NCBI GenBank assembly: GCA_947302655.1
Contig: CAMYVW010000001.1
Coordinates: forward strand, 340,263 to 404,262
Direction of reading: 5' to 3'
From: an uncultured Mycoplasmatota bacterium
GTDB taxonomy: Bacteria; Bacillota_I; Bacilli_A; RF39; UBA660
Length of the DNA: 64,000 nt
In this document: in pieces, positions 4,790-56,611 of the stretch
Position numbering within the stretch: the first letter of the stretch is position 1
Layout: every line of letters begins with the position of its first letter
Notes under the pieces: generated by a model
Database searches by the model: none
Seen by the model: the letters and a program-made list of their open reading frames with translations, nothing else
Told to the model about the DNA's origin: nothing
Translations under genes and position numbers: made by a program

Positions 4790-5022
4790 TGAAAAACGAG
4801 GAACAAGAGGAGTAAAGTAATAAATAAATTAGATAGAGAGTTAACGATTGGTGAAAGTTAATATTTATTATTACATGAAGGTAGCTTGGGAGTTATATAT
4901 CTGAAATATTAGTAAGATATATTGTTTAGTCGCATTAAGACTATTAAGGTAGTTTATATTAATAAACTATAAATTAAGGTGGTACCACGAAAAGATTCGT
5001 CCTTTAGGATGAATCTTTTTTT
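4790..5022 (+). ncRNA. T-box riboswitch, valine specifier (GUA)
   Basis: AGAGAG and GGTGAAA stem-I motifs, GAAG-GTA-GC specifier at 4881-4883, T-box AAGGTGGTACCACG at about 4976-4989, CGTCCT antiterminator strand, terminator AAAAGATTCGTCC-TTT-AGGATGAATCTTTT plus T-tract; valS lies downstream. Confidence 0.9.
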
Positions 5023-8060: not shown

Positions 8061-8089
8061 TTGACATTTGTTCGATTATTTGCTATTAT
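8061..8089 (+). promoter_or_regulatory. Sigma-A promoter carrying shared element ACATTTGTTCGAT (copy 1)
   Basis: TTGACA-TTTGTTCGATTATTTGC-TATTAT, 17-bp spacer, extended TG. Confidence 0.75.
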
Positions 8090-8117
8090 TAGCTTATTCA
8101 AAAGGGGGGACTATAAT

Positions 8118-8758
8118 ATGTATCGTAAAGGTATACATGAATATTTATATGAAAATATAGAAATGATAAAAAGACTTGAGAAATACTCAACTGTACCAAG
8201 AATTTGTTTAACTGCAAAGGATCAACAAACAATTATTAAAGATATTGATAATACAAAACCGCTAAATGAAATTAATATATCAGAACTTGTAATATATACA
8301 AATATAGGAGTTTTAAAAGAAATTTATCAAAATAATATTTTTACTTAGAACAACTTTTAAGTATAAATGAAATTGATTTTAATAATATATTTGGTAAATC
8401 TAAATATAAGAATCAAATTAAAGATTTAATTGAATTGATGAATTGTAAATTTAATTTCATATATAATAGTGGCAAACTAAAGCATAGTATTAGCTTTTAT
8501 AGATCTCATGGACATCCAGAAGTATTCTTTTTAAATATGTGTTTTAGTAGAGAGTTAGCTAGTGCATTAGTTGAGTATATCAGTAAATATAAACCATACT
8601 ATTTTGAGTTTGAATATGAGTATGCTACTGATATATTAAGGCTAGCACAAGATGTAGAGGAAAATAGATCTGACTTAATATTACCACCTCAACTTAAAAA
8701 TGAGTTTATTGTTAAATCAAGAATATTTACAAATTACTATAGATCAAGATCAAGATAA
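8118..8758 (+). pseudogene. Hypothetical gene split by a 1-nt frameshift in T5 (8338-8342); about 213 aa if fused
   Basis: SD GGGGGA before ATG 8118. ORF1 stops at 8348 while the -1 frame is open from 8336 to 8758; no SD precedes 8435/8438. Confidence 0.65.
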
Positions 8759-8773
8759 TAAAATATTACACTG

Positions 8774-8804
8774 AAAAAAGTTGCTAAAAAATAGCAACTT
8801 TTTT
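8774..8804 (+). terminator. Intrinsic terminator
   Basis: AAAAAAGTTGCTA-AAAAA-TAGCAACTTTTTT. Confidence 0.85.
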
Positions 8805-8869
8805 CTTGCACTAGTATAAAATATATAGTAAAATTAATATACTTTTGCGTTTTGGAGATGAACATAAAT

Positions 8870-9439
8870 ATGGAACTTAAAAATAAAACTTTATATCACT
8901 TTAGAGATGGAAGAAGAAAGAATCTAAATTGGATGGTAGGAAATGAGTTTATTGTAGATTCAAAATATAAGAATTATATATGTAGTGATGTTAAAAGAAT
9001 TGATACTGACTTATCTGACGTTGAAAAAAAGATTGCATACTATAAAATGTTAAGAGATAACGAAACACCGTTTAAAATAGCTGAAAGAATGTTAGAACTT
9101 TATCGAGAAGAACAATGCCCAGATACAATTGGTAGAATTAATTGCATGTTTTTTTGCGATGAAGCATCCCTTGGATATTGGTGTCATCGCTTTGGACCAT
9201 ACTCTGAGTTATATGAAGTTGAACTAACTGGAACAGCATTTAAAACATCTACATTATTATTTCCATTTGCGGGATCAAATTGTACATATGAAGATTTCTT
9301 AAAACTATGTGAAAACTACTGGAATCCTGATTTAACAGATGAAGATTTAAATGATTATGCTGAATATTTATTTCAAGGAAAAGTATTTGTAAGAGAAAAA
9401 CTAGATATAGAAAAGATAAGAAATAAGTATAATTCTTAA
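8870..9439 (+). CDS. DUF2441-like protein, probable ADP-ribosyltransferase-fold domain
   Basis: Own promoter TTGCAC-17-TAAAAT (8806-8834), SD GGAGATGA. Motif series LYH ... E-LYREEQCPDTIGRINCMFF ... YW ... LYEVEL ... YW ... EYLFQGKVFV recalled as DUF2441-like; not searched. Confidence 0.55.
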   Translation: MELKNKTLYHFRDGRRKNLNWMVGNEFIVDSKYKNYICSDVKRIDTDLSDVEKKIAYYKMLRDNETPFKIAERMLELYREEQCPDTIGRINCMFFCDEASLGYWCHRFGPYSELYEVELTGTAFKTSTLLFPFAGSNCTYEDFLKLCENYWNPDLTDEDLNDYAEYLFQGKVFVREKLDIEKIRNKYNS

Positions 9440-9507: not shown

Positions 9508-9535
9508 TTAGCACTCACATATTGACAAGTGCTAA
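9508..9535 (+). promoter_or_regulatory. CIRCE element 1 (HrcA operator) overlapping the -35 box
   Basis: TTAGCACTC-acatattgac-AAGTGCTAA (10-nt spacer); TTGACA at 9522-9527, TGaTAAAAT at 9541-9549. Confidence 0.8.
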
Positions 9536-9553
9536 AATTGTGATAAAATATTC

Positions 9554-9580
9554 TTAGCACTTAGAAATAAACAGTGCCAA
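9554..9580 (+). promoter_or_regulatory. CIRCE element 2
   Basis: TTAGCACTT-agaaataaa-CAGTGCCAA, canonical 9-nt spacer, just before hrcA. Confidence 0.85.
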
Positions 9581-27734: not shown

Positions 27735-27735
27735 C

Positions 27736-27764
27736 TTTACATTTGTTCGATAATAATGTAGAAT
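27736..27764 (+). promoter_or_regulatory. Sigma-A promoter carrying shared element ACATTTGTTCGAT (copy 2)
   Basis: TTTACA-TTTGTTCGATAATAATG-TAGAAT, 17-bp spacer. Confidence 0.7.
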
Positions 27765-27796
27765 ACATAACTACATTTAAAAAAGGAGTGATTTGT

Positions 27797-28747
27797 GTGA
27801 ATTATATAGCTATAAAATCAACTGGAAATCTATTGCTAGATAAAATAAAAGTTTTAAATGTTGTTTTTAAACCTCTTGGTTACACATTTATGAAAGATGA
27901 AGATACTGATAAGGTATTATTAATTGAAAATAATAAAAATAGAGTTTGTTTAGAAGAAAATGATTATAAATCTAATAATGGAATTAATAGATATATTCTT
28001 GATAACTCAAGAACATTAAGTGTTAATTTTGATAATTTAGATCGTCTTATAAATGCATTTATTACTGATGATGTAAAAGGATCTACACATATATTTGTTC
28101 AATTTGAAGATACTAAATATCTAAAAAAATTTAATTTAATTGATAAAGATGCCTGGTATAGTGATCCTACTCTTATAATTACAAACTTTCAAATAACTAT
28201 GAATGATTATAAATATACAATAGATTACTATCAATCAAATGGAATGCTTTCGTTTGGTAAATATAATGGTAATGATAATATTCATATTGGTATGTCTAGA
28301 AGTGATGGAAGTGATACATTACTTACTTTTAGTTCATACATTAATAATCAATCATCTGTTATAGCTTCGTCAGGAAATGAACTTTATCATAATCTTTCTT
28401 TAACGGATAATTTAGAGGATAAATCATTTAAAGTTCAATTACATTCTAACTATTCAACTGGTAAAAAAATGAATTTAGATTTATCTACTATTGATAAATA
28501 TAAACATTATAGTAATTCTAATCTTATTAATAATAAAAATGTTAGAGATATATTAGATGAAGTAGTAAATTGCTATAATGAAGTATTTCCATATAATAAT
28601 GGAGAAAATATCTTATTAGGTGGTTATTTATATAATGCATATACAAATGGCAAACCTAATGATGAAAAATTAGCTGATAATTTTTTAGAAGCTGCGAATA
28701 TTCCAATAAAAAGTTTGGAATCACAAAGAGTTAATAAGAAAAAATAA
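27797..28747 (+). CDS. Hypothetical orphan protein
   Basis: SD AAGGAGTGA favours GTG 27797; Asn-rich, basic C-terminus QRVNKKK. Confidence 0.7.
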   Translation: MNYIAIKSTGNLLLDKIKVLNVVFKPLGYTFMKDEDTDKVLLIENNKNRVCLEENDYKSNNGINRYILDNSRTLSVNFDNLDRLINAFITDDVKGSTHIFVQFEDTKYLKKFNLIDKDAWYSDPTLIITNFQITMNDYKYTIDYYQSNGMLSFGKYNGNDNIHIGMSRSDGSDTLLTFSSYINNQSSVIASSGNELYHNLSLTDNLEDKSFKVQLHSNYSTGKKMNLDLSTIDKYKHYSNSNLINNKNVRDILDEVVNCYNEVFPYNNGENILLGGYLYNAYTNGKPNDEKLADNFLEAANIPIKSLESQRVNKKK

Positions 28748-28755
28748 TAATTACA

Positions 28756-28789
28756 AATAATTGCCTTTTAGGCAATTTTTTGTTAGAAT
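28756..28789 (+). terminator. Terminator overlapping the T-box promoter
   Basis: AATTGCCT-TTT-AGGCAATTTTT; TTGCCT-17-TAGAAT with extended TG. Confidence 0.7.
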
Positions 28790-28795
28790 ATCAAT

Positions 28796-29005
28796 GTAAT
28801 CAATGATTTAAGATGTAATAAAAGTTATTTTATTAGAGAACTTACATTTTGGTGAAAGTAAGTAAATAGTTTTTATTATCTGCTACTTAAGGAGATTAAT
28901 CGGAGTTGTTCATTCCTTCGTTAAAAAAGAAAATTAAGTAAAAGTAAGGATGGTACCGCATTTATTGCTCCTTGATAGGTGTAATAAATGTGTTTTTTTA
29001 TTTTT
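28796..29005 (+). ncRNA. T-box riboswitch, alanine specifier (GCU)
   Basis: AGAGAA, GGTGAAAG, specifier GCT at 28882-28884, T-box-like AAGGATGGTACCGC at 28946-28959, GCTCCT, terminator CATTTATTGC..GTAATAAATG plus T-tract; alaS lies downstream. Confidence 0.82.
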
Positions 29006-42330: not shown

Positions 42331-44877
42331 ATGAATAGAAGTGAAGTAGATTACGAAAAATTAAGTCCAATGATGAAACAATATATGGACATCAAAAAAG
42401 AATATGAAGAAGAACTTCTGTTTTTTCGTCTTGGTGATTTTTACGAACTTTTCTTTGAAGATGGCATCCTTGCATCAAGAGAGCTTGAACTTACATTAAC
42501 AGGAAAAAATGCAGGTTTAGAGGAAAGAATACCTATGTGTGGTGTTCCTTTTCACTCTGTATCACCATATATAGAAAAGCTAGTTAATAAAGGATATAAA
42601 GTTGCTATTTGTGAGCAGTTAGAAGATCCAAGAAATGTTAAAGGTATGGTTAAAAGAGGAGTAGTTCAAGTTATTAGTAAAGGTACTATTTTTGATTATG
42701 AACTACTTAATAAAAATGAATCAAATTATATTGCATCACTTCTTGATTTCAATCATTTATATATCTTAACCTATGCTGATATATCAACTGGTAAATTATG
42801 TTCTTTAACACTTGAACATAACTTAGACAGTGTTATTAATGAGGTTTTAAGTTTAAATGTTAGTGAACTTATTTTATCTGATTCATCAGACGTAAATTTA
42901 ATAAATTTACTTAAAAATCAGTATAATATTAGTTACACTATTTCAAGTGAATATTTAGAAAGTAAAGATTATGAAAAACTACTTGAACCTCTTAAAGATA
43001 TGCATGCTAAAACCGGAGTTAAGCATCTTTTATATTATCTAATTGTTAAAGAATTAAAAGATTGTTCTCATTTTAATGAAGTAAAAATAATTAATAAAAA
43101 AGATGTTTTAAAAATGGATATTCATACGATTAGAAATCTAGAACTTACTGAAACTTTAAGATTAAAAGAAAGAACAAATTCTTTATTGTGGCTTTTAGAT
43201 AAAACTAAAACTGCAATGGGTTCAAGACTTCTAAGAGAATGGATTATATCACCAATATTAAATAAAGAAGAAATTTCAAAAAGATATGATGAGATAGAAA
43301 AATTTAATACAGAGTTTATTATTAAAGATGAACTAAGAGAAAAATTATCTTTAGTTTATGATATTGAGAGGTTATCAGGTAAAGTAGTAGGTGGACAATT
43401 AAATGCAAGAGATCTATTACAACTTAAAAACTCTTTAAGCGTTCTTCCTGAAATTAAAAACCTATTAATAAATCTAAATCTTGATTATGATATTGATGCT
43501 CATGAAGATATATATTTACTACTTGATAAAGCAATATATGAAAATCCACCTGTTGGCATAAAAGAAGGTTATCTAATTAAAGAAGGATATAATGAAGAAT
43601 TAGATGAACTTAAAAAAATAAGATCTGGTGGAAAAGATTTTGTTTCTGAATTTGAAAAAACAGTTAAAGAAGAAACTGGAATTAAAAACTTAAAAGTCGG
43701 TTATAACAAAGTATTTGGTTACTATATTGAAGTATCAAAGGGACAAGTAAATCTTGTTAAAGATGAATATAAATGGGATAGAAAACAAACTTTAACAAAT
43801 TGTGAAAGATTTATATCCCCACTTTTAAAAGAAAAAGAAGCATTAATACTTAATGCTGAAGATAGAATTATTGATTTAGAATATAACTTATTTAACGAAA
43901 TAAGAGAAGTAATTAAAAAAGAAGTTTTAGGTCTACTTAAAACTGCATCAACACTTGCAAGACTAGATGTTATGCTTTCTCTAAGTGTATGTGCTGATGA
44001 ATATCATCTTATTAAACCTGAAATATCAAGTGAAAACATTATTAAAATCATTGGAGGTAAACATCCAGTTATTGAAAAAGTATCAAAAGGTAATTATGTT
44101 CCTAATGATTGTATAATGGATGAAAACATTAATACCTTATTGATTACTGGACCTAACATGTCAGGTAAATCAACATACATGAGACAACTTGCAATAATAA
44201 TCATTATGGCTCAAATAGGTTCATATGTGCCAGCTGATGAAGCCATCTTACCAATAATAGATCAAATATTTACAAGAATAGGTGCAAGTGATGATTTAGT
44301 TTCAGGTGAATCAACTTTTATGGTTGAAATGAAAGAAGCTCGAAACGCTATATGTAATGCAACTAAAAATAGTTTAATTTTATTTGATGAATTAGGTAGA
44401 GGAACCGCAACATTTGATGGTATGAGTCTTGCTAAAGCAATACTTGAATATATAACAACTGAAATAGGTTGTAAAACACTATTTTCTACTCACTATCATG
44501 AATTAACCGAAATAGAAAGTTATTATCCTAGTATAAAAAATGTTCATGTAGCTGTTAAAGAGGAAGGTGAAGAAGTAACCTTCTTACATAAAATAAAAAA
44601 TGGACCAGTTGATAAGTCATATGGTATTCATGTTGCTAAACTTGCCAATATGCCTAAAAAGGTAATTGATAGAGCATCAGTTATATTAAAAGACTATGAA
44701 AAAGGTGTAAAAATTGATTCAAGTAGTAAAGTTCAACTTAGTATGTCTTTTGATGAACCTCAAACTATTACTAGAAGTTTAATTGAAGAAAGATTAAAAG
44801 AACTAGATATATTAAATACAACACCTATGGATGCTTTAAATGAATTATATGAATTAAAAGAAATGTTAGATAAATAA
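42331..44877 (+). CDS. mutS: DNA mismatch repair protein MutS
   Basis: SPMMKQY, FFRLGDFYELF, GPNMSGKSTYMRQ, FTRIGASDDL, DELGRGT, FSTHYHEL, SYGIHVAKLA. Confidence 0.98.
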   Translation: MNRSEVDYEKLSPMMKQYMDIKKEYEEELLFFRLGDFYELFFEDGILASRELELTLTGKNAGLEERIPMCGVPFHSVSPYIEKLVNKGYKVAICEQLEDPRNVKGMVKRGVVQVISKGTIFDYELLNKNESNYIASLLDFNHLYILTYADISTGKLCSLTLEHNLDSVINEVLSLNVSELILSDSSDVNLINLLKNQYNISYTISSEYLESKDYEKLLEPLKDMHAKTGVKHLLYYLIVKELKDCSHFNEVKIINKKDVLKMDIHTIRNLELTETLRLKERTNSLLWLLDKTKTAMGSRLLREWIISPILNKEEISKRYDEIEKFNTEFIIKDELREKLSLVYDIERLSGKVVGGQLNARDLLQLKNSLSVLPEIKNLLINLNLDYDIDAHEDIYLLLDKAIYENPPVGIKEGYLIKEGYNEELDELKKIRSGGKDFVSEFEKTVKEETGIKNLKVGYNKVFGYYIEVSKGQVNLVKDEYKWDRKQTLTNCERFISPLLKEKEALILNAEDRIIDLEYNLFNEIREVIKKEVLGLLKTASTLARLDVMLSLSVCADEYHLIKPEISSENIIKIIGGKHPVIEKVSKGNYVPNDCIMDENINTLLITGPNMSGKSTYMRQLAIIIIMAQIGSYVPADEAILPIIDQIFTRIGASDDLVSGESTFMVEMKEARNAICNATKNSLILFDELGRGTATFDGMSLAKAILEYITTEIGCKTLFSTHYHELTEIESYYPSIKNVHVAVKEEGEEVTFLHKIKNGPVDKSYGIHVAKLANMPKKVIDRASVILKDYEKGVKIDSSSKVQLSMSFDEPQTITRSLIEERLKELDILNTTPMDALNELYELKEMLDK

Positions 44878-44878
44878 T

Positions 44879-44907
44879 TTGACATTTGTTCGATATTTTG
44901 TTATAAT
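44879..44907 (+). promoter_or_regulatory. Sigma-A promoter carrying shared element ACATTTGTTCGAT (copy 3)
   Basis: TTGACA-TTTGTTCGATATTTTGT-TATAAT, 17-bp spacer, extended TG. Confidence 0.78.
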
Positions 44908-44934
44908 CAATCTCAATTGTTGGGGGTTATGAAT

Positions 44935-46233
44935 ATGAGTAGATACGTAGGTAACCAAGAATTTGATGAAAGATTTTTTAACAATTATATAAAAACAATA
45001 TTTGGTGAAGCGTTTTCACATTCAAGTTTATCAACTGAGAAACTCTTTTTAGAGTGTAATAAATATGCCCTTCAACTACGAGCTTTTACTTCAAGAGCAA
45101 ATAGACAGTATTATGACATGATTTTAAATTATGGCAGAAACGATGATATAAAAATTCTCTATGAAAGAAAAGAAGACTTTAAAAACTACTTAAAATATAT
45201 GAAAGGTATAAGTACAGAAAAATTCTACGATGAAGACAATGAACCGTTACCTTGTTTAGCAGACTTCGACAAGTATTTTCCATATGTCTATAGACCTTTT
45301 AGATCAAAATCAGATCTTGATAAAGCAATAGAGAATAACGAAGAACTTTATATGCCATATGAAAAAGAAACAATGGTATCACAAATAGAAGAACTTTATC
45401 AAATAATATATAATAAATTACAAGCTGATAAAGTTGCTCATAATCATAAAAGAGATAACCATAAAGCTTTTCTTTACGCATTAGAACAAGAAAAATTAGC
45501 TATTCCTGAAATTATAAAAATAAATGAAATAGTTAATGATTCTGATGATATTCATGTTGGTTTTAAAAGCGTTGAAAACACTATTTTAAAGCAAAATGAA
45601 TTAGGTTTTGAAACATGCCCTAAATCACTAGTTCCTGTTCGAATGCAAGAATTAATTTATATGTATAATAATGATTGGAATGAAGAAATACCTAAATTTA
45701 ATTATTTAGAAGAATTAAAAAAATTTAATGATATGATAAATAAAAATGCATATAGTGCAAATGAAATAGCTAAAGAATCTGAAATATTAGAAAAGAAAAG
45801 AGAAGAACATGATAATGCTATTTTATTAAGAGAAGCTAAATTTCATATCGAATTTGAAAGAATCCATCCATTTGAAGATGGTAATGGTAGAACTGGTAGA
45901 ATAATATTAAATAAAAATTTAATTGATAATGGTTTTGCTCCAATAATTATACCTAAGGAAATAAGAGAACAGTACGTATCTTGTATTAATGATCCTGTAA
46001 ACGGACCAACAAGATTTGCTGAAATAATCAAAATATTATCTAGTTCACAAAAATCTATGATGGTATCATCATACCGTGACTTACAAGGTTTTGAACCTTA
46101 TGAACTAAGTCAAAGTGAACTTGGTAATAAAGATAATAAAAATCTTGAGACAGGTGAATCTAGCGTTATAGAAGATGACACAAGAATATATCCTGGTCCA
46201 AATGTAAGAAAAAAAGAAGACACTATCTACTAG
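44935..46233 (+). CDS. Fic-domain protein (AMPylase-type motif) with long unknown N-terminus
   Basis: IHPFEDGNGRTGR complete Fic motif; SD GGGGG favours ATG 44935. Confidence 0.9.
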   Translation: MSRYVGNQEFDERFFNNYIKTIFGEAFSHSSLSTEKLFLECNKYALQLRAFTSRANRQYYDMILNYGRNDDIKILYERKEDFKNYLKYMKGISTEKFYDEDNEPLPCLADFDKYFPYVYRPFRSKSDLDKAIENNEELYMPYEKETMVSQIEELYQIIYNKLQADKVAHNHKRDNHKAFLYALEQEKLAIPEIIKINEIVNDSDDIHVGFKSVENTILKQNELGFETCPKSLVPVRMQELIYMYNNDWNEEIPKFNYLEELKKFNDMINKNAYSANEIAKESEILEKKREEHDNAILLREAKFHIEFERIHPFEDGNGRTGRIILNKNLIDNGFAPIIIPKEIREQYVSCINDPVNGPTRFAEIIKILSSSQKSMMVSSYRDLQGFEPYELSQSELGNKDNKNLETGESSVIEDDTRIYPGPNVRKKEDTIY

Positions 46234-46300
46234 TGTCTTTATTTTATATTTGTAATAAATTATACCTGTGATATAATTACTATACAGGGAGGTAATTTAA

Positions 46301-47266
46301 ATGGCAAAGAAAATAAAAGATACAGAAGAGTCATTTAATATTAAGGACTATAGAAGCGAAATAGATAAATATGTTAAAGAAAAAGTGGCTGAAGAAGCTA
46401 AGAAAGTAGTTAATCTAAAAGATTATAAGGATCAAATTGATAAATATACTAAAGAACGTGTTGAAATTGAATCAGCATCACAAAGTGTAAAATTATTAAA
46501 AAAGCAACTACATAATAAAAAGATTAGTAGTGGTATTAAAAGCTTTATTATTTTATGTTTACTAGCTTGTATGGGTTATGGAATATATTATTTATATCAA
46601 GATGGATATTTCGATGAAAATAAAGGAGTCAAATGTCCTGTAAATAATTGTGATGTTAGTAAAATTATAATGGATGATCCATCATCAAAAACTGATAAAG
46701 GTAAATCGAAAGAAGTATCTCTAGACGAACTTAAAGTTAAATATTCTTATTTACTTGACTCAGTAATATTTGATGCGAATAGTAATTATACAAGGGATTA
46801 TTATCAAGGTAATTTAACCAATGAAATTAAACTATATTTATCATATAAATTATTAGGTAGTGATGAAATAATTACAAGTGATGATTCAAGTTATTTTGAT
46901 TCAATGTCACTTGAATCATCATATAAAAAATTATTTAGTGATAAAATTAATTTAACTTCATTTAAATATAATAATGCATCATATATATATATTCCTGGTA
47001 AGGAAATTTATATGACAAATAACAAACCTAATGAAGTAAAAAATATTACTCGTGAAATTACTGATATTACTTTAGATGACGAAAATAATATAATTATTAC
47101 ATGCGTTGAAGGTTACATTAATGAATCTGGAAAGTTATATAATATTTTAACTAATAAAGAAATACCAGGTTATAAGCAAAGTTATAGTTTATCTAAATAT
47201 AAAGATAAATTAAATACTATTACATACGTATTTAATGACAATTATCTTATTAACTTATATAAATAA
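46301..47266 (+). CDS. Hypothetical membrane protein
   Basis: Repeat NIKDYRSEIDKYVKEKV / NLKDYKDQIDKYTKERV, one TM, extracellular domain. Confidence 0.7.
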   Translation: MAKKIKDTEESFNIKDYRSEIDKYVKEKVAEEAKKVVNLKDYKDQIDKYTKERVEIESASQSVKLLKKQLHNKKISSGIKSFIILCLLACMGYGIYYLYQDGYFDENKGVKCPVNNCDVSKIIMDDPSSKTDKGKSKEVSLDELKVKYSYLLDSVIFDANSNYTRDYYQGNLTNEIKLYLSYKLLGSDEIITSDDSSYFDSMSLESSYKKLFSDKINLTSFKYNNASYIYIPGKEIYMTNNKPNEVKNITREITDITLDDENNIIITCVEGYINESGKLYNILTNKEIPGYKQSYSLSKYKDKLNTITYVFNDNYLINLYK

Positions 47267-47354
47267 TGAAGATAAATCAAAAGATTTGTCTTTTTTATTT
47301 AAATAACTTTATATATTTATAATAAACGTGTTATAATTGTAGAAGGTGATATTT

Positions 47355-47756
47355 ATGGCATTAACTAGAAGTGAACTTCGCGAAAAATGTATGGTTATTC
47401 TTTATCAAAATGATGTTTTATATAAAAATAAAAATGACGGTGATATTGATGCTATTATTAAAGAAAATTTAGAAATTGATAATGATTTTGTTAAAGAAAT
47501 AGTTTATGGCGTAGTAACTCATTTTAACGAACTTGATCAAATCTGTAATAAATACATGAAAAATTGGAGTATTGATAGAATTGATAAAACAGGTGCTGCA
47601 ATCTTACGTATTGCAACATATGAACTAAAATATACTGATACACCTCCAGTTGTTGTTGTAAATGAAGCCATAGAGCTTGCAAAAAAATATTCTGACGATG
47701 ACGTAAGAAAAATGATTAATGCTGTGCTAGATAAAATTATTAATGAAAATGAATAA
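47355..47756 (+). CDS. nusB: Transcription antitermination factor NusB
   Basis: TRSELRE, NWSIDRIDK..ILRIATYEL, VVNEAIELAKKY, INAVL. Confidence 0.95.
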   Translation: MALTRSELREKCMVILYQNDVLYKNKNDGDIDAIIKENLEIDNDFVKEIVYGVVTHFNELDQICNKYMKNWSIDRIDKTGAAILRIATYELKYTDTPPVVVVNEAIELAKKYSDDDVRKMINAVLDKIINENE

Positions 47757-49257: not shown

Positions 49258-49764
49258 ATGGAAACAAATATTGTAGGTGCTAGTTTATTTGATAATATTA
49301 AACATATAGACGATGAAGGAAATGAATATTGGTACGCAAGGGAATTACAAAAGATATTAGATTATTCTCAGTGGAGAAGATTTGAAGATGTAATTAATAA
49401 AGCTATTACTTCTTGCAGAAATAATGAAAAAGATCCAAACTACTATTTTGCCATAGTTGGCAAAATAGTGAAAACAGGGGTTTCAACGATACAAATTAAA
49501 GATTTTAAACTATCTAGATATGCATGTTATTTGATTGCTCAAAATGGTGATCCAAGAAAGAAAATCATTTCTTTAGCTCAAAATTATTTTGTTACTAAAA
49601 CAAGAGAACAAGAACTTGAAGAATTAGTATATAAAGAAATGAGTGAAGATGATAAAAGAATATATCATCGAAATATAACTAAGAAAAAGAATTATTTATT
49701 AGATTAAACAGCACTTAAATCTGGAGTGAAGAACGAAGTAAAAAATAAAGAATTAAAACCTTAA
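49258..49764 (+). pseudogene. dinD: Truncated DinD-like (DNA-damage-inducible, Bro-like N-domain) gene
   Basis: FDNIKH..EYWYARELQKILDYSQWRRF, LSRYACYLIAQNGDPRK, AQNYF. TAA at 49705 is followed in frame by TALKSGVKN, then an early end; full-length members are about twice as long (from memory). Confidence 0.75.
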
Positions 49765-54525: not shown

Positions 54526-54604
54526 TTAAGCAATATTTTTTTATATAAAAAAAGGAAATTCACTTTTTTTCGGAAATGTATATTAGTGAAAGGAAGTGAA
54601 AATT

Positions 54605-55540
54605 ATGAATAATGAAATAATCCTATTTGAGGATCAGGATGTTAAACTTGAAGTCAGTTTAAAGGACGAAACAGTTTGGTTAAATCAAAACTCAATAGCA
54701 AAATTATTTGGCGTAGCAAGAAGCACAATAACGGATCATATTAATAATATTTTGATTTCAGGTGAGTTAGAAGAAAAAACTTCTGTCGGAATTTCCGACG
54801 AAAGTTCAGGAGGAAGAAAGCCAAAACTATATAATCTTGATATGATTATTGCTGTTGGATATAGAGTTAATTCTAAAAAGGCTACAATATTCAGAAGATG
54901 GGCAACAAATATTTTGAAAGAATATCTAATAAAAGGTTATTCAATTAATATGAAAAGACTGAAATACTTAGAAAAAACTGTACAATTAATTGATGTTGCA
55001 TCAAGAATAGAAAATGATATTGACGTTAGTGATGCCAAAGAAGTAATTCATGTTATTAATTCTTATTCAAAAGCATTTGATTTACTTGATAAGTATGATC
55101 ATAAACAAATCATAAAACCCAAAGGTAAATTAGATCTAGCAAGAATTACGTATGATGATTGTAAGAGTATTATCGAAACACTTGAATTTAACAAAACAAG
55201 TAACATTTTTGGGCTTGAAAGAGATAAAGGTTTAGAGTCAATAATCAATAATATTTACCAGTCATTTGATAATAAAGACTTATATGAATCAGTTGAAGAA
55301 AAAGCAGCAAATCTTTTATATTTAATAATAAAAAATCATCCGTTTATTGATGGTAATAAGAGAATAGCAGCTACTATATTTGTCTATTTTTTAAGTTTCT
55401 ATAAAATATTATATGATAATGATGTATTGAATATTAATGGTAAAACTTTAGTAGCCTTAACGCTTCTTATTGCTGAATCTAATCCTAAAGAAAAAGAAAT
55501 AATGGTAGATTTAGTTATGAATCTTTTAATTAATAATTAA
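54605..55540 (+). CDS. RhuM-family DNA-binding domain fused to Fic/Doc domain
   Basis: ETVWLNQ..IAKLFG, YNLDMIIAVGYRVNS..ATIFRRWA, then AANLLYLIIKNHPFIDGNKRIAA. Confidence 0.9.
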   Translation: MNNEIILFEDQDVKLEVSLKDETVWLNQNSIAKLFGVARSTITDHINNILISGELEEKTSVGISDESSGGRKPKLYNLDMIIAVGYRVNSKKATIFRRWATNILKEYLIKGYSINMKRLKYLEKTVQLIDVASRIENDIDVSDAKEVIHVINSYSKAFDLLDKYDHKQIIKPKGKLDLARITYDDCKSIIETLEFNKTSNIFGLERDKGLESIINNIYQSFDNKDLYESVEEKAANLLYLIIKNHPFIDGNKRIAATIFVYFLSFYKILYDNDVLNINGKTLVALTLLIAESNPKEKEIMVDLVMNLLINN

Positions 55541-55577: not shown

Positions 55578-55618
55578 ATAATACCTATATTTATCCATAA
55601 TAAGTATAGGTGATATAT

Positions 55619-56611
55619 ATGAAAAAGAAACTATTTATATTATTAATATCATTTTTATTTCCTCTTTCTGTATGTGCTTATTCAGATAAAATAATACCTG
55701 GAGGGGGTACAATAGGTATAAAAGTAAATTCTAAAGGCATTATGATAGTTGGTTTTTACAAAGTTGATGGAAAATATAATAAAGGTAATCCCGAATTAAA
55801 AGAAGGGGATTATATAATCAAAGTAAATGATGAGAAAATTAATAGTGTTGATGATTTAATTAATGCAGTAAGTAAATATCAAAATGATGAATTAGTTAAT
55901 ATAACTTATTTAAGAAATAAAATAGAAAACAATACAAACTTAAGATTAGTAAAAATTGATGGGGTTTATAAAACGGGATTATATGTTAAAGATTCTATAA
56001 CAGGTATAGGAACTTTATCTTATATTGATCCAGAAAATAATATCTATGGAGCTCTTGGTCATGAAATAGTTGAGTCAAATAGTAAAGTAATGATAGATAT
56101 AAAGGATGGAACAATATTTAAAAATATTGTAACTAGTATAGAGCGTAGTGTAGACGGAAGTCCCGGAAGTAAGAATGCTAAGTTTTATAATAATAAAGAA
56201 TATGGTAATGTTTTAAAAAATACGAAGTATGGTATATATGGTATTCCTAATCAAAATATATTAACTGGGGAACCAGTTAATATAAAAAAATTAAGTGAAG
56301 TGAATTTAGGAAAAGCATATATAAGAACAGTAATAAACAAAGAAGATGTAAAAGACTATGAAATAAATATTCTTGAAATAAATAAAAACAGTAAACTTAA
56401 GAGTATAACTTTTGAAATAACAGATGAAGAACTTTTAAATAAAACAGGTGGAATAGTTCAGGGAATGAGCGGAAGTCCAATAATTCAAGACGGATATTTA
56501 ATAGGAGCTGTAACACACGTATTAGTTGATGATGTTAAAAAAGGATATGGAATAAGTATTATAACAATGTTAGATGAAGGAGATAGAATATTAAATAAAA
56601 TTAATGATTAA
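55619..56611 (+). CDS. SpoIVB-type PDZ serine peptidase (S55)
   Basis: IIPGGGTIG, PDZ (EGDYIIKVND), GIGTLSYID, ALGHEI, GGIVQGMSGSPIIQDG, GAVTHV. Confidence 0.9.
   Translation: MKKKLFILLISFLFPLSVCAYSDKIIPGGGTIGIKVNSKGIMIVGFYKVDGKYNKGNPELKEGDYIIKVNDEKINSVDDLINAVSKYQNDELVNITYLRNKIENNTNLRLVKIDGVYKTGLYVKDSITGIGTLSYIDPENNIYGALGHEIVESNSKVMIDIKDGTIFKNIVTSIERSVDGSPGSKNAKFYNNKEYGNVLKNTKYGIYGIPNQNILTGEPVNIKKLSEVNLGKAYIRTVINKEDVKDYEINILEINKNSKLKSITFEITDEELLNKTGGIVQGMSGSPIIQDGYLIGAVTHVLVDDVKKGYGISIITMLDEGDRILNKIND

Follow-up and report, generated by a model that had tools for sequence, protein, structure and literature searches.

What does it mean that three genes with no apparent relationship, spread over one stretch of AT-rich DNA from an uncultured cattle-rumen bacterium, sit behind promoters that share the same 13 bases? 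We addressed this question in a window of 64,000 nucleotides (the whole stretch of DNA analysed; G+C content 26.6%). An exact search of the window places ACATTTGTTCGAT at 8064–8076, 27739–27751 and 44882–44894, all on the + strand, with no fourth exact copy. Each copy is fused to the −35 hexamer of a promoter (TTGACA at 8061, TTTACA at 27736 and TTGACA at 44879), followed in all three cases by a 17-nt spacer and a −10 hexamer reading TATTAT, TAGAAT and TATAAT at sites 1, 2 and 3, with an extended −10 TG at sites 1 and 3. All three rank first or second among the promoter-like matches of their own region. The sequence search thus confirms the arrangement that the initial annotation had reported, and its impression that the element is missing from other promoters here is borne out as well. 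The 8-mer TTGTTCGA is confined to the three promoters and does not occur in the window in the opposite orientation, and none of the window's further strong intergenic promoters (9522, 16016, 38519, 38978, 41042 and 57042) has a spacer related to the shared block. The downstream proteins are indeed mutually unlike, as had been claimed, with no similarity among the three by BLASTP (best E = 1).

Statistical support from the window on its own is only moderate. Thirty-three distinct 13-mers are seen three times in it, nearly all of them pure A/T, so the repeat count per se is not rare, and ACATTTGTTCGAT with up to two mismatches occurs 7 times against 3.45 expected, which is not significant. Both observations would suit an accident, a 13-mer common to three strong promoters simply because the DNA is AT-rich. 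Against such an accident, the promoter register is identical at three of three copies, and thrice-seen 13-mers with at least four G/C number 2 of the 33, compared with 0.13 expected. Because the window statistics are moderate, the case against chance is carried by the fixed promoter register and by conservation in relatives. There, 25 further instances and invariance at orthologous sites, both described below, refute chance, and on these comparative data we regard it as excluded.

Site 1 heads a unit behind valS. Its promoter module (8061–8089, + strand) consists of TTGACA, the spacer TTTGTTCGATTATTTGC and TATTAT, with the conserved block TTTGTTCGAT at 8067–8076, and the stretch 8061–8089 is unchanged in the strains of metagenome runs X1–X3. 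A Shine-Dalgarno run of six G (8104–8109, +) lies 8 nt upstream of the ATG at 8118, which opens an orphan gene of ~213 aa (8118–8758, +) that has no Pfam or PHROG match. A 1-nt frameshift within the T5 run at 8340–8344 breaks the gene into 8118–8348 and a second frame whose end is at 8758. The initial annotation had called it a frameshifted orphan; the frameshift is present in this assembly, but the gene is not a decayed one. Same-organism contigs of three other metagenomes carry one extra T in the 8340–8344 run, and intact products on record measure 213 aa (97% identity) and 212 aa (76% identity). Given the extra T elsewhere and the intact 213-aa product, the frameshift is a strain-specific lesion or an assembly error rather than gene decay. 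The unit closes with a terminator (8774–8805, +), a hairpin GTTGCT...AGCAAC followed by T6, and the DUF2441-like gene downstream of it (8870–9439) has its own, different promoter. Further upstream, a T-box leader at 4790–5007 (Rfam RF00230, 120.7 bits) precedes dut-valS, so the first gene behind this T-box encodes a dUTPase.

At site 2, the module (27736–27764, +; TTTACA, spacer TTTGTTCGATAATAATG, TAGAAT) begins 1 nt past the stop codon of an AI-2E transporter gene. Base 27738 is T in the window and G in the strains of runs X1, X3 and X5 (three other metagenomes), with the 13-mer the same; the −35 box of site 2 therefore reads TTGACA in those strains. This T-to-G difference is the sole change inside the three modules among same-organism contigs from other cattle metagenomes. 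The downstream orphan gene (316 aa; 27797–28747, +) has a GTG start and a GGAG ribosome-binding site at 27785–27788, and its homologues on record form only two clusters (97% and 30% identity). A terminator with an 8-bp stem and a T-run follows at 28759–28783 (+). An AACAAAT..TTGCC repeat around the unit was considered and rejected, being the terminator stem itself, and a proposed Ala T-box near 28796 falls below the Rfam gathering score.

Site 3 matches the promoter hexamers at 12 of 12 positions and adds the TG (44879–44907, +; TTGACA, spacer TTTGTTCGATATTTTGT, TATAAT). It begins 1 nt past the mutS stop codon, and a Shine-Dalgarno run of five G (44922–44926, +) lies 8 nt upstream of the ATG at 44935. 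The gene (44935–46233, +) encodes a Fic-domain protein of 432 aa with a HPFEDGNGRTGR motif and a Pfam PF02661 match (E = 2e-12), which agrees with the Fic enzyme named in the initial annotation. A terminator hairpin marks the end of fic (46216–46240, +), and the next gene (46301–47266) has its own promoter at 46250. We considered whether Fic might be its own DNA-binding regulator and rejected the idea, since structure matches cover the Fic core alone (residues ~277–370); even the alignments to 3eqx and 3cuc, chains with a DNA-binding domain, are limited to that core. The local gene order is mutS, fic, a 320-aa membrane protein gene and nusB-xseA-xseB in place of mutL (42331–47756), and no mutL was found within the window. 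The mutS-fic order is kept in at least five lineages (the window and L150, L153, L160 and L163 among the loci collected from relatives). A distant Fic (41% identical) at another locus lacks the block; the fic promoter of the L157 lineage carries none. By eye, from the translations, we also named another Fic-type protein, whose N-terminal part resembles RhuM (54596–55540), and a short DinD-like ORF of 149 aa (49258–49707); neither the 13-mer (exact or with up to two mismatches) nor the TTGTTCGA 8-mer occurs upstream of these two genes.

Comparison with relatives suggests that what shows up here as a 13-mer belongs to a larger module, standard in a clade of uncultured Bacilli of low GC content from rumen and gut. 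In full it reads TTGACA-TTTGTTCGAT-ATTTTGn-TATAAT, then 15–25 nt, a G4–G6 ribosome-binding site and the start codon, and we gathered 28 non-redundant copies of it from such Bacilli. A reference-genome scan with the 16-mer returned mostly chance matches from all phyla; three with the full module stood among the at least 119 matches listed, and these three genomes are rumen MAGs of low GC content, classed as 'Bacilli bacterium'. Metagenome contigs scanned with the 16-mer plus N7-TANNAT gave 28 loci, 18 of them low-GC (22–29%) rumen contigs with near-identical modules. The set of 28 instances also includes copies reached later via protein homology. Positions 1–16 (TTGACATTTGTTCGAT) are practically invariant over the 28 instances, an invariance that is partly ascertainment because 18 of the 28 came from a pattern demanding the exact 16-mer and about eight are unbiased. 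Positions 17–23 are A/T-rich and end in the extended −10 TG, after which come TATAAT-like hexamers. In every one of the 28 instances the invariant part runs from the −35 hexamer through the tenth base of the spacer, while the flanks, 5′ of the −35 and 3′ of the −10, are unrelated between instances.

The motif is also present where no motif search had been used, namely in L150, L153, L162, L163 and L165 and in second copies of L135, L141 and L146. Within positions 7–16, these independently found copies show only two changes: L146 has TATG instead of TTTG (position 8), and L150 has C instead of T at position 16 (GAC for GAT). Allowing up to one mismatch, the 12-mer is confined to these promoters in the window, L150, L153 and L157. 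The check in relatives places the same block, in the same promoter register, before at least 28 different genes. A scan of viral contigs gave two identical matches on phage contigs of 49% GC, which we judged unrelated. A perfect palindrome, ATCGAACAAAT-N5-ATTTGTTCGAT, in Clostridium sulfidigenes (L003) was rejected as an operator because it is the eno terminator hairpin.

The translation signal belongs to the module as well. A ribosome-binding site of four or more G lies 15–25 nt downstream in 27 of the 28 motif genes (at least five G in 23), compared with GGGG in 3 of ~51 other window genes and GGGGG in none (Fisher p ~1e-16 against the motif genes). Since the G-run accompanies nearly every motif gene and is rare elsewhere, the unit is promoter, block and G-run Shine-Dalgarno together. 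Among the other window genes, ribosome-binding sites of the GGAGG and GGTG types dominate.

The genes behind the module are diverse. They encode three different Fic proteins, DUF2441 and DUF218 proteins, a membrane protein with a LysM-like segment below the Pfam cut-off, and many products without any family. At L127, L135, L141 and L146 the module precedes genes for hydrophobic peptides of 25–26 residues, each followed by a second orphan gene. At these peptide loci (L135 4489–5385, L141 2287–3117, L146 4426–5665, and L127; an example peptide is MIVLKLAVFCALARTFVKKVDKEDIF) a short hairpin presents the ribosome-binding site of the peptide gene in its loop, an arrangement known from type I toxin mRNAs, and the orphan that closely follows is variable. 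Motif units lie between housekeeping genes: relA|hisS, glyQS|sepF, ABC transporter|gpsA, valS|hrcA, perM|alaS and mutS|nusB.

Orthologous junctions offer a closer view of what is conserved. In the five lineages that share the mutS|fic junction (the window, L145, L150, L153 and L163), TTGACATTTGTTCGA is invariant. The remaining spacer varies (TATTTTG, TATTTTG, CTTTTTG, TAAAATG and TAATTTG), the leader shows substitutions and indels between lineages, and the distance from the mutS stop codon to the promoter is 0, 1 or 5 nt depending on the lineage. Homologues of fic occupy the same slot (mutS, fic, 320-aa membrane protein, nusB) in four other lineages, where MutS, trigger factor and NusB are 89–93% identical. 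Fic identity between lineages is 51–75% compared with 90–93% for MutS, marking Fic as fast-evolving. At the valS|orphan junction, the window and L162 (orphan 76% identical) are identical over TTGACATTTGTTCGAT and differ in both flanks. The relatives compared are close, as the MutS identity of 90–93% indicates, so the footprint is built on a limited number of independent substitutions. The block is frozen while adjacent non-coding bases drift, which we read as the signature of selection acting on the block itself, beyond the needs of sigma-A; this is the main argument for a bound factor. The footprint is phylogenetic, the product of neither chance nor recent copying. The hidden regulon proposed by the initial annotation thereby gains the support of comparison, with the block before at least 28 genes and invariant at orthologous junctions.

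Not every pairing of module and gene is stable. The 423–437-aa orphan family has the motif promoter in L165 (2958–4284) and other promoters in L150 and L153. In L165 the 423-aa member lies between recD2 and the transporter gene and carries the motif promoter and GGGGG; in L150 (5916–7313) and L153 (5107–6504) the family occupies a different chromosomal position. In the 316/341-aa family, the slot that the site-2 gene occupies in the window is filled in L165 by a gene whose product is 30% identical to the site-2 protein and whose promoter is not the motif promoter. DUF2441 carries the module in L125 and lacks it in the window and L162. With three families found both with and without the module, promoter–gene pairings are reassigned over short evolutionary distances. 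The whole of unit 2 (promoter, 316-aa gene and terminator, ~27735–28790) is missing from the relative L160, with the left border at the module; there the transporter gene is directly followed by an Ala leader, a dNMP-kinase-like gene and alaS. In the comparisons made, we saw no replaced segment that has the module at each of its two borders. The fic and valS-orphan units are stably syntenic.

This mobility invites an explanation in which nothing binds the block. The module would serve the clade as its preferred signal for strong expression. New or fast-evolving genes would receive it through duplication, gene conversion or recombination at short homologies, and its spacer would be the same by descent or homogenisation. 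The families that occur with and without the module fit this account, as do the site-2 unit as an indel relative to L160, the near-identity of the full 29-mer, beyond the core, in many accessory instances, and the joint movement of the promoter with its unusual G-run ribosome-binding site. Promoter reuse and shuffling mediated by promoter-early stem-loop (PeSL) cassettes are documented (PMC3575422, PMC2839356). Against it, the inherited junctions keep ten spacer bases while the next seven and the leader drift, for which descent alone is insufficient. The identity also ends precisely where the −35 begins and where the −10 stops, and the leader that separates the −10 from the ribosome-binding site shows no conservation, which argues that no contiguous cassette is being copied. 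Moreover, we know of no property of sigma-A promoters that demands GTTCGAT in the spacer. We therefore consider a reused signal with no regulator behind it improbable.

A second way to account for the mobility is recombination at the block itself, which would then serve small mobile units as their left end or attachment site, the units being inserted at the 3′ ends of housekeeping genes. Two of the window promoters begin 1 nt past the upstream stop codon, many motif units lie between housekeeping genes, and relatives differ in whether they have the site-2 unit. Yet we found no direct or inverted repeats flanking the three units, no unit whose right end carries the block again and no recombinase among the neighbouring ORFs, read by eye at the listed loci. 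The offset from stop codon to promoter is not constant either, and the fic and valS-orphan units are syntenic. With flanking repeats, right-end copies and a recombinase all missing at the loci inspected, an attachment site is very unlikely. The initial annotation had offered a shared end of inserted units as one possibility. What stands of this is the absence of unit 2 from L160 and the reshuffled pairings; the stable synteny of fic and the valS orphan, the lack of flanking repeats and the stop-to-−35 distances of 0, 1 and 5 nt speak against the rest.

We favour the reading that the block is a putative repressor operator inside the spacer of a strong sigma-A promoter, marking a clade-specific regulon, and we place its probability at roughly 55%. 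The predicted sigma-A promoter is near consensus (TTGACA, a 17-nt spacer and TGnTATAAT), and TTTGTTCGAT supplies the first ten bases of its spacer. A sequence-specific protein seated between the −35 and the −10 would keep RNA polymerase off these otherwise very strong promoters. With a promoter so close to consensus from the outset, a repressor is likelier than an activator. A signal that removed the repressor would then turn on the entire gene set at once. The Fic AMPylases, hydrophobic peptides and fast-evolving orphans in the set point to a stress, DNA-damage or phage-triggered response. Two properties expected of a regulon are seen here: the same site in the same register lies upstream of several non-homologous genes, and it is conserved at orthologous junctions beside diverging non-coding bases (five lineages for mutS|fic, two for valS|orphan). 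Other features weigh against an operator. For the site of a bacterial repressor, the block is unusual in having neither a dyad nor a clear direct repeat, and its 16 near-invariant positions over 28 promoters are tighter than most operators. No recognisable cognate DNA-binding regulator was found as a recurrent neighbour or among the 28 downstream genes, where it could have controlled its own expression.

LexA is the sole candidate for the binding protein that we can name, and a tentative one. Read on the opposite strand, the block is CGAACAAATGT(C/A)AA, which would be a Firmicutes-type box whose second half-site has merged with the −35; LexA would repress, and damage to the DNA would bring about expression of Fic, the small membrane peptides and the orphans. 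The initial annotation had counted 11 of 14 positions in agreement with CGAACRNRYGTTCG, and this count is correct. Like the Firmicutes LexA operator (the Cheo/DinR box, CGAAC-N4-GTTCG), the block has a perfect CGAAC, an A/T-rich 4-nt centre and then GT. The footprint-invariant TTGACATTTGTTCGA corresponds almost exactly to the 14-bp box plus one base, and the L146 variant ACATATGTTCG alters only the central N4, towards the consensus ATAT. The block overlaps the core promoter in 28 of 28 instances; LexA boxes commonly overlap promoters, and SOS regulons elsewhere hold small membrane toxins and division inhibitors (TisB, DinQ, SidA and YneA), comparable to the toxin-like and small membrane proteins found downstream here. 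Clostridial LexA operators accept a degenerate second half, for example GTTT, CTTT or ATTT (PMC4234289).

Several features of the block nonetheless depart from a LexA operator. Its second half is the −35 hexamer and it forms no palindrome: the half opposite the perfect CGAAC reads GTCA or GTAA, matching two of the four core bases of GTTC. A15 and T16, which lie outside the box, are equally invariant, and the boxes here are identical at every gene whereas normal LexA boxes vary by gene. The canonical GAAC-N4-GTTC was not seen in intergenic DNA when 438 kb from the clade were inspected. At three sites in 64 kb, the regulon would by extrapolation far exceed the usual SOS size. A tblastn search of the 440 kb of collected clade DNA, with approximate sequences of E. 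coli RecA and of E. coli and B. subtilis LexA as queries, found neither recA nor lexA. On balance, an SOS identity for the block is possible and rather doubtful.

Other Firmicutes repressors provide a likeness in architecture. As with CtsR repeats and CIRCE/HrcA, an operator would lie over a consensus sigma-A promoter and define a regulon; unlike in those regulons, the genes here are lineage-specific orphans, not chaperones or proteases. The window itself holds a CIRCE element over the hrcA promoter (9508–9573). To our knowledge, compared by eye, the block resembles none of the consensus sequences of CtsR, CIRCE, HAIR, the Spo0A 0A box, PurR/PurBox, CodY, cre/CcpA, PhoP, WalR, SinR, TnrA, Zur/Fur/PerR, the ComX cin-box, the ComR box or PadR, nor parS, dif or integron core sites. 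The module is real and conserved, and we did not find it described; a text search of about 8.4 million papers and preprints gave no occurrence of the 12-mer.

The closest parallel in organisation comes from phages. PeSL regulatory cassettes of T4-type phages (PMC2839356, PMC4122927) place near-identical promoters before many unrelated, mostly orphan genes. In these cassettes and in promoter reuse in prokaryotes (PMC3575422), as here, the gene content behind the modules differs in close relatives, and the module often stands directly after a terminator. The differences are of three kinds. PeSL cassettes occupy hyperplastic regions, whereas the units described here are scattered among the housekeeping genes of a bacterial chromosome; the conserved part here is a promoter with a spacer block, not a terminator–promoter composite; and the orthologous footprints suggest selection on the block itself. 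More speculatively, the operator and the reshuffling could be two sides of one system. A plug-in module, made up of a consensus promoter with its operator and a G-run ribosome-binding site, would wire new or acquired conflict genes (Fic, type-I-toxin-like peptides and orphans) into one tightly repressed regulon that is induced as a whole, perhaps triggered by DNA damage or phage, with the module reassigned between genes over short times. This would make it a chromosomal counterpart of PeSL with a repressor that recognises a non-palindromic site, a proposal that we advance with little confidence.

If the block is an operator, it would provide a handle on otherwise unreadable orphans, small peptides and fast-evolving Fic proteins in uncultured rumen bacteria, and each gene behind it would be a member of one response. 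The lineage would keep rapidly changing genes under uniform, tight control, and the reshuffling of promoter–gene pairings among close relatives bears on how new genes gain expression. Established concepts would be unchanged, as regulons with promoter-embedded operators are ordinary biology.

Two observations stand beside these results. A SpoIVB-type (S55) peptidase-like protein, judged by eye, is encoded at 55610–56611 with neither spo0A nor recN adjoining; the gene order differs from that of Bacillus subtilis, where spo0A and recN adjoin the SpoIVB gene. Lastly, TTTTTACATTTGTTCGATTTACAT forms the invariant centre of a conserved intergenic element in four other uncultured Bacilli MAGs (L034 5790–6030, L049 4825–5065, L098 6117–6345 and L117 2060–2300 on the − strand). 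On both sides of it stand TTTACA repeats with a spacing of 10 nt, and the element precedes a SpoVB/MurJ-like gene by ~115 nt; it has the 16-mer in common with site 2 but lies outside any promoter spacer.
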